Shown here: piece after piece, positions 4,812-13,944 of the stretch | Layout of the letters: each line of letters begins with the position of its first letter | Position numbering within the stretch: position 1 is the stretch's first letter | DNA from: a virus | Reading direction: 5' to 3' (one strand) | Length of the DNA stretch: 64,000 bases | IMG/VR virus record: IMGVR_UViG_3300028388_003908 | Location: 1-64,000 of that record | Made by a program: the position numbers and the translations under genes | The notes under the pieces: model-generated | What the model was told of the DNA's origin: nothing | Databases searched by the model: none | Seen by the model: only the letters and a program-made list of their open reading frames with translations

Positions 4812-4884
4812 GGGCCTTTAGCTCAGAGGTTAGAGCATCCGGCTCATAACCGGACGGTCCTCGGTTCAAGCCCGAGAGGGCCCA
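4812..4884 (+). tRNA. trnI: tRNA with CAT anticodon, probably Ile2 (lysidine type)
   Basis: Acceptor GGGCCTT/AGGGCCC and anticodon arm TCCGG-CTCATAA-CCGGA. It lacks initiator features; Ile2 versus elongator Met is judged by resemblance only. Confidence 0.9.
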
Positions 4885-4919
4885 CTTCTTTGAAATCTCC
4901 GGTCAGTAATTTAAAATCT

Positions 4920-5052
4920 CTAAGGGGAGATATTATCCCCTTAGGTAGCTCTTGGGTTATGCGTCTACGGTGGTCGGCAATACAGGCTTAAATCAGTACG
5001 GTCTGGTGGCACTTTGGGGATTAACCGCAAAGACAGTCAGACGCGCTAGTCC
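4920..5052 (+). ncRNA. unassigned structured RNA segment
   Basis: Hairpin CTAAGGGGA/TCCCCTTAG, then a long-range stem GGGTTA-GCGTCT...AGACGC-TAGTCC enclosing a CTTTG/CAAAG hairpin. No ORF. Confidence 0.45.
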
Positions 5053-5154
5053 TCCTTGCTCTTGTTGTTCCGAAGAGTAGAGCGAAAACGGAACGCTTAT
5101 GTGAAAGCGCTAAAGGTCAGCGTCTAAGAAGGTTCGATTCCTTCCTTTCGCTCT
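5052..5154 (+). ncRNA. pseudoknotted tRNA-like RNA, copy 1 (manA-like)
   Basis: GCTCTT-gttgttccg-AAGAGT hairpin whose loop pairs with CGGAAC. Closing stem AGAGCGAAA/TTTCGCTCT. T-arm GAAGG-TTCGATT-CCTTC. Confidence 0.7.
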
Positions 5155-5235
5155 CAAGAGAGGATCATCTTTGTTGTTGGGGTGTGTTTAAATCTCTCTT
5201 GAATAGTCTCTTCCTGTTGCTGTGAGGGCAGGATT

Positions 5236-5338
5236 CTCCTTTCCCGTTGTTCCGTGGGATTGAGACGAAAAACGGAGCGCTTATGTAGAAGCGTAGATTG
5301 CTACATCCTAACGGGCTCGATACCCGGCTTCTGCGTCA
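5236..5338 (+). ncRNA. pseudoknotted tRNA-like RNA, copy 2 (manA-like)
   Basis: Same architecture with covarying stems (TCCC/GGGA; CGGG-CTCGATA-CCCG). Ends CCGGCTTCTGCGTCAC. Confidence 0.7.
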
Positions 5339-5354
5339 CACACACACACACACA
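5337..5354 (+). repeat. (CA)9 microsatellite abutting the SD
   Basis: CACACACACACACACACA directly followed by AGGAG. Confidence 0.95.
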
Positions 5355-5365
5355 AGGAGACATAT

Positions 5366-5572
5366 ATGTCCGAAAAGAGCAGTAAGAACGGTTACGAGGT
5401 TCGTGAAAACCTACTTAGCATGGCTATCGGAATACTCTCTGAGCGCGATAATAAAGAGCGCGAGAATGAGTATCTGAAGCCCGAAGGTCAGCGTCAGCCT
5501 ATCAAAGGCTATGATCTTGAGGAGGTGTTGGCGACTGCTGAGAAGCTATACGGCTTTGTAAGCAGAAAGTAA
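5366..5572 (+). CDS. small conserved phage protein (KNGYEVR...AEKLYGFV type)
   Basis: 68 aa with a strong SD. The pattern is recalled from phage hypothetical proteins. Confidence 0.8.
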   Translation: MSEKSSKNGYEVRENLLSMAIGILSERDNKERENEYLKPEGQRQPIKGYDLEEVLATAEKLYGFVSRK

Positions 5573-5606
5573 CCTGCTGAGGAGGTAAAACTCCTCCCCT
5601 AAATAT

Positions 5607-5679
5607 GCGATCATAGCTCAGTTGGTAGAGCATCGGTCTTACAAACCGAGGGTCACAGGTTCAAGCCCTGTTGGTCGCA
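5607..5679 (+). tRNA. trnV: tRNA-Val(TAC)
   Basis: Acceptor GCGATCA/TGGTCGC and anticodon arm TCGGT-CTTACAA-ACCGA. Confidence 0.95.
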
Positions 5680-5681
5680 CT

Positions 5682-5734
5682 AGCTCTAGTCTTTTTTCCT
5701 TTCCTGAGCGTTAGACAAGGGCTAGAGCTTTTTT
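5682..5734 (+). terminator. long-loop terminator hairpin
   Basis: AGCTCTAGTC...GGCTAGAGCT plus T-run. Confidence 0.7.
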
Positions 5735-8890: not shown

Positions 8891-11800
8891 AACCGAGATT
8901 GGAAATAACAAGATGACTAAGACCTTCATGTCAGAGAAAGATGTTGAGACACATTTCCGTAAGCTCTTGGAAGACGCTACGGGGGCTCAGTTCTTAACCC
9001 TCAAGAAGCTCACAGGGGAGCAGGGTGGTGCTTGGGCTACTGATGGTGTGATTGAGTGGACTGCTCCTTGTTCGACCTCAGTCAAGGTCTTGCTTGAGAC
9101 GAAGTTTGGAACGGACTTGAAGAACCCTCAGACAAGAAGCTCTGTGTTGGCTCAAGCTCTCTACTACTGCAAGAAGTTTGAGAATCGTGGAGAGGACACA
9201 CCAAGCGTGATCTTTGTGGGAGACGACAAGTTCTGTTTCGCGCTTGAGTTTGGCAAGGTGAAAGAGTTTATGGGCGCTCAGATTGATTGGTCGAGAGCGA
9301 CTAGCTCACCCGACAAGGCGTTGACCGAAGCTATTTCTGAGAAGGGTATTTCCCCTCACTTTGAGACAACGCTTGGTGTTGATGGAGAGAGCTTAAAGAA
9401 GCTCTGTGAGGAGTTGACGAAGGGTTGTGTTTATAAGGTGAAGCCTAGCAAGCACAACATTTCAGCGATGTTTCAGTATTGGGTCGATCACATTATCCCA
9501 CAGGGGAAATACACGCCTGTGGAGATGACGGACATTTTCTTTGGGTGTGTGTTCTATACAGAGGAGCAAAAGATTGCTCGCACTCTTAGTGGGAAAGAGG
9601 TCTTGATTGGGGGTCGGGAGTACGAGTTGAACGTGGGTGCTATGAACGCTTGGTTTGAGCGTCGTCAGCGTGGGTTAAAGCCTTCAGAGATTGAGGAGCT
9701 TGTGTCTATGCGAGATCGTATCATTGAAGATGATACGCGCAGACGACAGGGGGCTTTCTATACACCTACGTTATGGGTAGATGAAGCTCACTCTGAGATG
9801 GACAAGGTGTTGGGTTCATCTTGGAGAGAGGACTGCATAGTGTGGGATTGTTGTGCAGGTACAGGGAACCTCACACGCGACTACAAGTTTAAGAACTTGA
9901 TTATTTCCACAGCCGAGGCACCTGATGTTCAAGCTCTGAAGCGAGAGGGATATAGTAAGAGCTTTCAGTATGATTTCTTAAACCCCGAAGCAGAGAGCCC
10001 TTTCTTTGGGGAGGGAGATGGGGACAACGTATTGCCATTGTCTGTGAAGAAGATTTTAAGAGAGGGCGCGAAGGCGGGGAAGCGTTTAGTATTTCTGATT
10101 AACCCCCCTTATGCTACAGCTAATAATGCAGGGGCTAAGGGTACTGCAAAAGCAGGGGTCGCTCAGAGCATCGCGAACGAAGAGATGAAGAAGGCGAAGC
10201 TAGGTGCTTGTTCACAACAGCTTTATGCTCAGTTCTTATTTCAATGCGAGCAGGTAGCCTCAGAGTATGGTTTCAAGCAAAAGAGCGTGGGCGTGTTCTC
10301 GCCTATCCTTTACATGGTAAGTGGCTCTTTCGCAAAATTTCGGCCTTTTTGGTACGAGCGTTATTCTTATCAGTCGGGCTTCATGTTTCAAGCCTCACAT
10401 TTCGCTGATGTGAAAGGGTCTTGGGGGATTGGTTTCACGTTATGGAGTGAAGGCAATACTGACATCACACAGGGCTTTGTTATGACTCTAAAAGGTATGG
10501 AAGACGAGAATGTTATCTCCCTGGGAGATAAGATCCTTTATGCTTCAGATGGTCGAGAGGCTTCTTCTTGGGTAAGAGAGCTTGTTAAGGGTGCTAAGAC
10601 TTTTGACGCACCTCAGATGAAATCAGGGTTAGCTCTTGCCCAAGAAGGAAGAGGGAAGCAGACTTTAGACTCTCTCTTTTACTTGCTCGTAGCAGGAAAT
10701 AATCTGCAACAAGCTGGTCAGCTAACAGCCTTCTTTTCAACTACTTTTTCCAATGCAAACGGTTTATCAGTCTTAGCAGGTGAAGGTTGGCGTAGAGCCA
10801 TCGCCCTTCTCTGTGCTCGCAAACTCATAGCCTCAACATGGGCAAACCAAAAAGACGAGTACTTAGCTCCTCAGACTGAGTTAGAGGGATATGACCAATG
10901 GGTAGATGATTGTCACGTTTATGCGCTTCTTCACAGTGCAAATAACATGACCGCTATGAGAAGCGTTACCTACAAGGGTCAAAGTTATAACATCCACAAT
11001 CATTTCTTTTGGCTCACTCGTAAAGAGGCTATGAAGCTCTACGATGACAACCGAGCAAATGACCTCTATCGTGACGCTAAGATTAACCCTATCCCTTATG
11101 AGGTAGAGGAAGAAATGGGAGAGGACATTACTCCACAATGGCGCAAAGATGGTGACCCTTATTTCTCTCATGTGCTTCCGACTCTTAACCTCTCACCTTT
11201 AGCGAAAGAGATCATGGAGGACTTGAACAAGCTCTTTATCAAGTCTCTCACTCTGAGAGCTTCTACAGGCTCAGTAGAGGAGAAGGGTAAGCAGATTGAT
11301 CTTCACTTGAGCGCGTGGGATAGTGGGATTTATCAGCACAAGAAGTTATGGGCTACAGACGCTACTCTGAAGGCTGATTGGGAAGCGTTAAAGGCGAAGC
11401 ATAGAGAGTTAGCCAAGAGCCTTGAGCATGGTGTTTACACCTATGGGTTCTTGAAGAAGTAAGAGTCTTGGGTAGAGTGGGGTGAGAGCCCTGCTTTAGT
11501 TGACTGCTCTCAGAAAGAGGTTTTGAAATGAGAGTGGTCAACCTGTTGATAGCGAGGCGAATGGGAGAGGGGCTTCCTGTAGTCGATTGTCATATCGTGG
11601 AGTACGGGCTGATTCAGACTCGTGTCGATTGGCTTTCTGACGAGGGAAAAGTCCTAGATCAGATAAGTCAGGTGACTTACGATAGGGAGACATTAGGTCA
11701 CGCATATTCTTATGACGATGAGCTATACACAACCGAGGGGAGCAGAGCATATTTCAAGGGGTACGCTTATGCTCTTACTCTACAGAAGGACACCTATGGA

Positions 11801-13875: not shown

Positions 13876-13944
13876 ACATCTATCGCTCAAATGGCTAGAG
13901 CGCGTCTCTTGTAGACGGTGCAGGTTCAAATCCTGTTAGATGTG
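13876..13944 (+). tRNA. atypical or degenerate tRNA-like gene (Gln(TTG)-like or undetermined)
   Basis: Intact acceptor ACATCTA/TAGATGT, D-arm and T-arm, but a shortened anticodon arm (CGTCT-CTTGT-AGACG) and a 2-nt variable region. Confidence 0.6.

Follow-up and report, generated by a model that had tools for sequence, protein, structure and literature searches.

In the first 64,000 nucleotides of the viral record IMGVR_UViG_3300028388_003908 (the stretch analyzed here as a whole, hereafter the window), a cluster of transfer RNA (tRNA) genes contains two noncoding units of about 100 bases, both on the + strand (unit 1, 5052-5152; unit 2, 5236-5335), each of which joins a pseudoknot to a tRNA-like structure without an anticodon arm, which we designate the mini-tRNA. 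Comparison with related loci in other viruses (L numbers below) indicates that these units belong to a real family, which selection maintains in a small number of uncultured giant phages. RNAs of this general kind are already known (tRNA-like RNAs in phage tRNA clusters, the pseudoknots of transfer-messenger RNA [tmRNA]); what appears to be new is the combination of pseudoknot and mini-tRNA, together with a tmRNA-type pseudoknot that leads selected tRNAs, and no published description of such a family was found in the literature. Phage tRNA clusters are usually annotated as tRNAs and "spacers"; in this cluster, such spacers contain two RNA modules that are conserved and covary, the first of them common to a phage tmRNA and to the leader regions of certain tRNAs, the second corresponding to the half of a tRNA that is seen by processing and acceptor-end enzymes.

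The window is part of an IMG/VR viral contig of 143 kb. Because CheckV rates this contig as 46% complete, its source is a jumbo phage whose genome measures roughly 300 kb; no close cultured relative of this phage was found.

An earlier note on this DNA, written from the sequence alone, had described the units as tandem copies of a pseudoknotted tRNA mimic. The sequence elements that it listed are all found where it placed them, and the two units are diverged direct repeats, identical in 63 of about 105 columns. Exactly two copies of the composite motif GTTGTTCCG-N(10-30)-ACGGA are present in the window, compared with none in 100 shuffles, and the rest of the 143-kb contig adds no further one. 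Taken alone, single-sequence folding does not reach significance (z = -0.7 to -1.8), and the case is therefore made by comparison with relatives, using a covariance model of the pseudoknot (R1) and another of the mini-tRNA (R2). Both models recover homologues, and the helices covary above shuffles. The covariation claimed for the 5' hairpin, for the T-arm-like hairpin and for the pairing of the loop with ACGGA[AG]C holds and is supported by the relatives, as is the general view of the units as noncoding, pseudoknot-bearing, anticodon-less tRNA mimics that stand in tandem and differ by compensatory changes. What had been treated as one unit is here divided into two modules, because the closest locus (L121, on a 296-kb contig, with 87% protein identity in the 68-aa open reading frame [ORF] that follows unit 2) shows them apart. 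The parts of the two units are as follows.

5052..5094, + strand: pseudoknot module 1 (R1, 46.8 bits, E 3.7e-10; helix counts)
5095..5100, + strand: spacer GCTTAT, 6 nt, with U at position -1 of mini-tRNA 1 (sequence comparison)
5101..5152, + strand: mini-tRNA 1 (R2, 71.3 bits; pair counts; helix lengths)
5236..5278, + strand: pseudoknot module 2 (R1, 47.8 bits, E 2e-10; helix counts)
5279..5284, + strand: spacer GCTTAT, 6 nt (sequence)
5285..5335, + strand: mini-tRNA 2 (R2, 81.1 bits; also the minimum-free-energy fold of the single sequence)

Structure and Covariation of the Pseudoknot

The pseudoknot is of the H-type: a hairpin with stem P1 carries the loop GTTGTTCCG(T), which pairs with a downstream ACGGA[AG]C to form stem S2. 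In module 1, P1 consists of 8 contiguous base pairs (5056-5063 with 5073-5080) closing the loop GTTGTTCCG (5064-5072), and S2 is formed between GTTCCG (5067-5072) and CGGAAC (5089-5094), the latter reached over an A-rich linker (5081-5088). Module 2 begins with CTCC (5236-5239); its P1 pairs TCCC (5242-5245) with GGGA (5256-5259) around the loop GTTGTTCCGT (5246-5255), and its S2 pairs GTTCCGT (5249-5255) with ACGGAGC (5272-5278), including one G-U pair. The form that recurs in the relatives is a hairpin with the loop GTTGTTCCG(T) and, behind it, (A)AAACGGA[AG]C; within the entire unit, conservation is highest in the loop, S2 and the A-rich linker.

Covariation was assessed in an alignment of 16 sequences. 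Double-sided changes were found in all of the counted P1 pairs (5/5), and S2 is paired in 100% of the cells, with a double change from G:C to U:A in two sequences. The covariation score of the pseudoknot is 0.44, compared with 0.15 in shuffles and a maximum of 0.24 when slid; likewise, the contiguous P1 pairs sum to 89, compared with 27 +/- 6 when the 5' strand of one instance is joined with the 3' strand of another. Diverged copies detected by R1 in front of tRNA-Arg(UCU) in three further records (L353-L355) have the loop GTTGTTCCT and the partner AGGAAC, a compensated G:C to U:A change in S2. Two units of L121 that have no P1 (at 2898 and 3540) keep S2 as a plain hairpin, again with compensated pairings (TCCCGT/ACGGGA and CTCCGT/ACGGAG).

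Structure and Covariation of the Mini-tRNA

In the window units, the mini-tRNA is 51-52 nt long and is composed of an acceptor-like stem of 7-8 bp, a D-arm-like hairpin and a T-arm, with no anticodon arm. The acceptor-like stem of mini-tRNA 1 pairs GTGAAAG (5101-5107) with CTTTCGC (5145-5151) over 7 bp and encloses the D-arm-like hairpin (5108-5122, loop AAAGGTC), a linker (5123-5127) and the T-arm GAAGG TTCGATT CCTTC (5128-5144), with T5152 as the discriminator. That of mini-tRNA 2 pairs GTAGAAGC (5285-5292) with GCTTCTGC (5327-5334) over 8 bp, one of them G-U, and encloses the hairpin GTAG ATTG CTAC (5293-5304), a linker (5305-5311) and the T-arm CGGG CTCGATA CCCG (5312-5326), with G5335 as the discriminator. 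A helix of 7-10 bp between the bases after the spacer and the bases directly after the T-arm, enclosing one hairpin and the T-arm, is present in 8/8 units; the pairings in the relatives read GTAGAGGT/ACTTCTAC, CATATCTG/CAGATGTG, TATGTCTG/CAGATGTA and CATGTCTG/CAGATGTG. The layers of the acceptor-like stem and the T-stem add up to 12 or slightly more (7+5 in unit 1, 8+4 in unit 2, and 12 in L015, L127 and L223a), the T-loops are TTCGATT, TTCGACT and CTCGATA, and the inner hairpin is D-arm-like, with loops such as TATTTGGT and TCTTGGT that often contain GG. At their 3' ends the units look like real phage tRNAs, and CCA is not encoded.

Measured against the tRNA family (RF00005), the units share the 12-layer stack of acceptor stem and T-stem (7 bp on 5 bp in tRNA) with its T-loop, and lack the anticodon arm, which in tRNA has a 5-bp stem and a loop of 7 nt: the loop of the single hairpin between acceptor-like stem and T-arm measures 4-9 nt, and an anticodon loop of the U33 type is not present. 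Neither ARAGORN nor the Rfam tRNA model calls a tRNA on either unit, and on unit 1 the only match is tRNA-Sec at 18 bits (E 0.89).

The training units of R2 score 61-81 bits, and L223, which was outside the training, scores 45.8 bits (E 6.6e-9). In the alignment fitted to the model, 79% of the cells of the fold are paired compared with 59% in shuffles, double-sided changes occur in 12/16 pairs, and the covariation score is 0.49 compared with 0.21 in shuffles and a maximum of 0.26 when slid, figures that are biased upward because the alignment was fitted to the model's own structure. Between phages the units are 66-85% identical, and their 100-nt flanks are mostly unalignable. Based on the covariation of the fold, the conserved island and the tRNA-like ends, we therefore regard the units as tRNA derivatives that have no anticodon arm and whose fold is maintained.

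The cloverleaf drawn in the earlier note has to be replaced by this structure. Its closing stem forms 9 bp in unit 1 only; the same segments give a best contiguous helix of 5 bp in unit 2 (4 bp, GACG/CGTC, in the register that had been proposed) and helices of 5-6 bp with differing register in four homologous units. Its GCTT/AAGC hairpin is restricted to the two window units and, in altered form, the nearest relative, and is 3 bp or absent in L015, L181, L127 and L223. Neither element is conserved in the homologues, and both compete with the acceptor-like stem, which is present and covarying in all eight units.

A further tRNA-related structure was observed at L127:2776-2835 (= G003:309448-309507). 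This is a bare minihelix, in which an ACACTTG/CAAGTGT acceptor-like stem is combined with the T-arm GCAGG TTCGAGT CCTGT and only about 10 nt replace the D and anticodon arms; R2 scores it at 21 bits (E 0.005).

Distribution of the Pseudoknot and Its Link to tmRNA

The pseudoknot is found 3-6 nt 5' of genuine tRNAs (tRNA-Asn and tRNA-Gly in L121, tRNA-Arg(UCU) in L165), about 29 nt 5' of an amber-suppressor tRNA in L223, upstream of mini-tRNAs in the window (twice), L127, L015/L181 and L223, and before plain hairpins in L171. To judge from these contexts, it is a portable element in its own right. Its distance to the downstream +1 is small, mostly 6 nt, and a 6-nt spacer of the NYYTAT type also occurs in unit 2, L127, L223a and L239, and before tRNA-Asn in L121. 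Matches to R1 number one or two per genome and always lie in the tRNA region, and they include two complete genomes of 312 and 376 kb.

The link to tmRNA comes from L178, a 127-kb record with a permuted tmRNA at 9560-9900 (- strand) that is called by ARAGORN and scored by Rfam as tmRNA_permuted (RF04321) at 73 bits, with a cut-off of 47; the same sequence is found in L184/L277 and in record G041 (121249-121304). The parts of this tmRNA include a T-arm, the acceptor piece CAGGTCC-ACCA and the 5' strand GGGCCTG with G3-U70, and the frame of its tag ATSGINGSAKIFTYSVNLRNTELVNA ends in ..LVNA followed by TAATAA. The pseudoknot lies 6 nt after this TAATAA stop, with the motif CTCCGAGGA GTTGTTCCGT CCTTG .. 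AAACGGAAC, and the beta_tmRNA model (RF01850) puts its own post-tag hairpin on S2, weakly and below threshold (13 bits, E 0.07). Because the identical motif occupies the post-tag position in L178, we consider the first module a tmRNA-type pseudoknot that also leads tRNA and mini-tRNA genes. The window units differ from permuted and two-piece tmRNA (RF04321, RF01850) in that the pseudoknot leads tRNA-like genes rather than coming after an ORF. They have no G3-U70 (the first acceptor pairs are G-C, U-G, G-C and G-C, U-G, A-U in the two units), the tmRNA models RF00023, RF01849-51 and RF04321 do not match them, no tag-like frame ends before either window pseudoknot as judged by eye, and ARAGORN calls no tmRNA in the contig, nor within stretches of 20 kb from three relatives.

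At L223:1726-1870, a second pseudoknot of this contig precedes the amber-suppressor tRNA (anticodon CTA, long variable arm), and the 29-nt leader between them holds CCACCACTT, which is complementary to the 5' part AAGTGGTGG of the same tRNA. In L239 (reverse complement, 797-945), the pseudoknot and a GCCTAT spacer are followed by a tRNA-like gene whose 5' acceptor strand and D-arm lie about 90 nt from the matching T-arm and acceptor 3' strand; the intervening sequence contains a second D-arm and a second T-arm, so that this gene may represent scrambled or nested tRNAs.

Database searches placed the units in no known family. With Rfam 15, cmscan at the gathering score returned only nine tRNAs over the whole window; at E<=10 it gave only noise and no family match to the units on 4880-5620, and at E<=1 nothing on the pseudoknot or mini-tRNA of four homologous loci. 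Small self-cleaving ribozymes (pistol, hatchet, twister, hammerhead and HDV-like) had no Rfam match either, at E<=10 in the window region and at E<=1 in the relatives. The exact pseudoknot motif is absent from 185,579 prokaryote genomes and from cultured phages, for which blastn against 50,697 phage records gave only T-arm matches to tRNAs. A strict pseudoknot pattern applied to metagenomes had L223, L239 and L242/L283 among the matches listed, and 56 of the matches listed were discarded as chance matches within one gut bacterial gene. When viral contigs were scanned with the looser pattern GTTCCG-N(8-35)-ACGGARCGCTT, 118 stretches matched, every one of them by chance or as a coding repeat, such as the tandem pair in L067. 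L173 and L177 have no P1 and were rejected as probable chance matches, and L174, located in a provirus with no tRNA context, is uncertain. The family as delimited here consists of about 16 pseudoknot instances and about five independent mini-tRNA lineages, all from uncultured jumbo phages.

Proposed Role of the Units and Alternative Explanations

The explanation that we favor, to which we give an about even chance, is that each unit is a two-module noncoding RNA gene in a polycistronic tRNA-mRNA operon, with the mini-tRNA as a punctuation element. Module A would be the sequence-specific H-type pseudoknot, as found after the phage tmRNA tag frame and before several tRNAs. Module B would be a tRNA that has kept its top half (the 12-layer stack of acceptor and T-arm, the T-loop and the D-arm-like hairpin) and lost the anticodon arm. 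The top half of a tRNA is what ribonuclease (RNase) P, RNase Z and the CCA-adding enzyme recognize, and because this substrate determinant is retained, we infer processing by such enzymes. After transcription as part of the cluster, the host machinery for tRNA processing would cut on the 5' side of the mini-tRNA, directly behind the U of its GCTTAT spacer, and again 3' of the discriminator base. The cuts would release a stable tRNA-like RNA of roughly 51-52 nt, a possible substrate for CCA addition, and also a pseudoknot-ended leader fragment; in unit 2 and its L121 orthologue, excision would leave the mRNA of the 68-aa ORF with a (CA)n-Shine-Dalgarno 5' end. The units would probably act, then, by yielding small stable RNAs or by setting the ends of flanking RNAs. 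If they are processed as predicted, giant phages use tRNA-type punctuation for mixed tRNA-mRNA operons, or make top-half RNAs with a non-decoding role; the R1 and R2 covariance models offer a means to find further members.

The surroundings of the 68-aa ORF point the same way for unit 2. The ORF has no family match in Pfam or PHROG, and its homologues were found at 25 viral loci (including L121-L145), all inside jumbo-phage tRNA clusters. A CA-rich run, (CA)n or of the ACACAGACA type, stands directly before the Shine-Dalgarno sequence in most of these loci, and in most of them a genuine tRNA, a plain hairpin or a mini-tRNA is located 5' of this leader, an arrangement that fits a role of the preceding element at the mRNA 5' end. 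A comparable arrangement is known from plant mitochondrial t-elements, which are tRNA-like, non-decoding and located beside mRNAs, whose ends are generated by RNase P/Z cuts (PMC1920247). As with t-elements and tRNA punctuation in general, unit 2 directly adjoins the 68-aa ORF's leader, and tRNA-Val follows the ORF; the predicted fold also has the structural prerequisites for processing of this kind. However, the t-elements belong to a different system with no homology to the units, most mini-tRNAs of the family are not beside an ORF, and the cleavage of the units is a prediction.

Besides the upward bias of the mini-tRNA figures, several observations weigh against the punctuation explanation. 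The mini-tRNAs of L127, L015 and L223 are followed by another tRNA and not by an ORF, so that mRNA punctuation is not their general role. Only one or two pseudoknots occur per genome among 6-20 tRNA genes; the pseudoknot is therefore no general processing signal. Where P1 has 8-9 bp, it leaves a linker of only 4-5 nt to S2, and in these instances S2 may form in place of the outer P1 pairs instead of together with them. In unit 2, the T-loop begins with C and not U (CTCGATA), several T-stems have only 3-4 pairs, and with its few independent mini-tRNA lineages the family is small.

Among the alternatives, the best placed, although still unlikely, is that the pseudoknot itself is the product (for example, a protein-binding aptamer or an RNA stabilizer, as in tmRNA) and that the tRNA or mini-tRNA serves as a handle for its release by RNase P, which would define its 3' end. 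This would explain why the loop, S2 and the A-rich linker are conserved across a tmRNA, four kinds of tRNA, the mini-tRNAs and the plain hairpins of L171, and why the spacer to the downstream +1 is short and, for the most part, 6 nt long. Yet L121 keeps two mini-tRNAs next to a pseudoknot that has decayed to a simple hairpin, so that the mini-tRNA is kept there without an intact pseudoknot, and no partner protein was found. Among the candidates checked (Ro/TROVE, RtcB and the CCA-adding type), no protein consistently co-occurs with the pseudoknot phages: Ro/TROVE (PF05731) has no match in the 143-kb contig, itself 46% complete, co-occurrence of RtcB was not found, and a nucleotidyltransferase of the CCA-adding type is present only in G002, one of four related phages. 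The latter (G002:C1:258906-260561, - strand) is a single frame of 948 aa with two PolyA_pol domains (CCA-adding/poly(A) polymerase type).

Several host-defense toxins modify or cut the acceptor end of tRNAs. By analogy, the mini-tRNAs might be CCA-tailed decoys or sponges for factors that bind the top half, for example CapRel/toxSAS, MenT-type nucleotidyltransferases or HEPN RNases. The units keep exactly the part of the tRNA that such enzymes see and have lost the decoding part, and their structure is under selection; against this, only one or two copies are present per genome, and no identity elements are conserved, the discriminator and the first base pairs differing between units. We regard this as rather unlikely.

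It is also quite unlikely, in our estimation, that the mini-tRNAs are functionless, decaying tRNA pseudogenes from which the anticodon arm was deleted as a rapidly evolving tRNA cluster underwent duplication and recombination. Their tRNA origin is clear from the D-like hairpins with …TTGGT… loops and from 3' ends like that of tRNA-Val (…GATCGCACTAGCC), and other damaged tRNAs occur in the same phages (13876-13944 of the window, the scrambled gene of L239 and the minihelix of L127 at 2776-2835). Decay is, however, at odds with an anticodon-less architecture in at least five lineages, with compensatory changes in all three helices, and with a conserved island amid unalignable flanks.

A broader variant, which we hold to be improbable, combines elements of these proposals: the pseudoknot would be a portable device, specific in sequence, that giant phages mount on tmRNA, certain tRNAs and anticodon-less top halves, where it would recruit a dedicated factor or serve as a catalyst for RNase P-independent 5' maturation or protection, and the mini-tRNAs would be CCA-tailed decoys against host defenses directed at the tRNA acceptor end.

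The original interpretation of the units as a manA-like motif or a tandem cis-regulator, in which CTCCTT masks the downstream AAGGAG Shine-Dalgarno sequence, is very improbable: CTCCTT is indeed complementary to AAGGAG and unit 2 abuts the ORF leader, but cmscan with RF01745 gave no match in the window region or in four homologous loci, neither manA nor any other Rfam family matches at E<=10, and no ORF stands behind unit 1. Because CTCC forms the base of the pseudoknot hairpin, paired within P1 with GGG/GAG on the 3' side, and is just as well conserved in modules that stand before tRNA genes or belong to a tmRNA with no ORF behind, we do not consider it an anti-Shine-Dalgarno element.

Comparison with Other Structured RNAs

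An anticodon-less tRNA-like domain is also found in bacterial YrlA (Y RNA-like), encoded next to an Ro (TROVE) gene, which, according to Chen et al. 2014, reportedly has an acceptor-like stem and analogues of the D- and T-arms. The units resemble it in this domain and differ in having no Rfam match, no Ro gene in the 143-kb contig and no Ro-binding helix. Type III antitoxin RNAs (ToxI-like), in which head-to-tail repeats of about 36-45 nt stand 5' of an endoribonuclease toxin gene, were considered and rejected: other modules separate the two window pseudoknots, which lie 182 nt from each other, and the next ORF encodes 68 aa with no family match. The small stable RNAs C and D (species 1/2) of phage T4, whose role is unknown, likewise come from a phage tRNA gene region (PMC3014915); their location is alike, and the comparison, made by sequence only, gave no relation to the units in blastn. 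The manA motif (RF01745) has been described in 5' untranslated regions of genes for mannose/fructose and nucleotide metabolism, ibpA and photosynthesis, in cyanophages and marine bacteria (PMC2864571). Like the units, manA is found in DNA of uncultured aquatic phages and may include a pseudoknot (PMC2864571); it belongs, however, to the 5' untranslated regions of metabolic genes in T4-like cyanophages and has no tRNA-like fold. The units, in contrast, lie between tRNA genes, and the only ORF behind unit 2 is that of 68 aa.

Operon Layout and Neighboring Features

The local order is tRNA-Met, a gap of about 165 nt, unit 1, a second gap of about 80 nt, unit 2, the (CA)n-AAGGAG leader, the 68-aa ORF, tRNA-Val and a terminator-like stem. 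The features that accompany the two units are listed below.

4812..4885, + strand: tRNA-Met(CAT), first gene of the local RNA cluster (ARAGORN; Rfam tRNA, 68 bits)
4890..4917, + strand: candidate sigma-70-like promoter, TTGAAA-16-TAAAAT, 10/12 matches (consensus scan only)
5154..5202, + strand: 9-bp stem TCAAGAGAG/CTCTCTTGA closing a 31-nt loop, 3' of mini-tRNA 1 (read from the sequence)
5212..5233, + strand: small hairpin P0, TCCTG..CAGGA, just 5' of pseudoknot module 2 (by eye)
5337..5359, + strand: (CA)n run, then the AAGGAG Shine-Dalgarno sequence; leader of the 68-aa ORF, directly abutting mini-tRNA 2
5366..5572, + strand: 68-aa ORF, no known family (homologues in tRNA clusters of related jumbo phages)
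5607..5680, + strand: tRNA-Val(TAC) (ARAGORN, Rfam)
5682-5734, + strand: terminator-like long-loop stem after tRNA-Val (read from the sequence)

The promoter match is a possible start of a transcript containing both units. A hairpin of other sequence is found at the position of P0 before most pseudoknot modules of the relatives, as judged by eye with no formal count. Stems with long loops, of 8-11 bp and with covarying sequence, were observed just after mini-tRNAs in the window (5154-5202), L127 (1257-1320), L015 (4931-5022) and L223 (1484-1600), and the loops of the three relatives have TGAAYGGTGT in common; these stems may be further conserved elements of the tRNA operons. Elsewhere in the window, a tRNA-Thr-like gene at 13876-13944 (+ strand) scores 42.5 bits with Rfam and is skipped by ARAGORN; its anticodon stem CGTCT/AGACG, identified by eye, closes a loop of only 5 nt (CTTGT), and it looks like a damaged or non-canonical tRNA.

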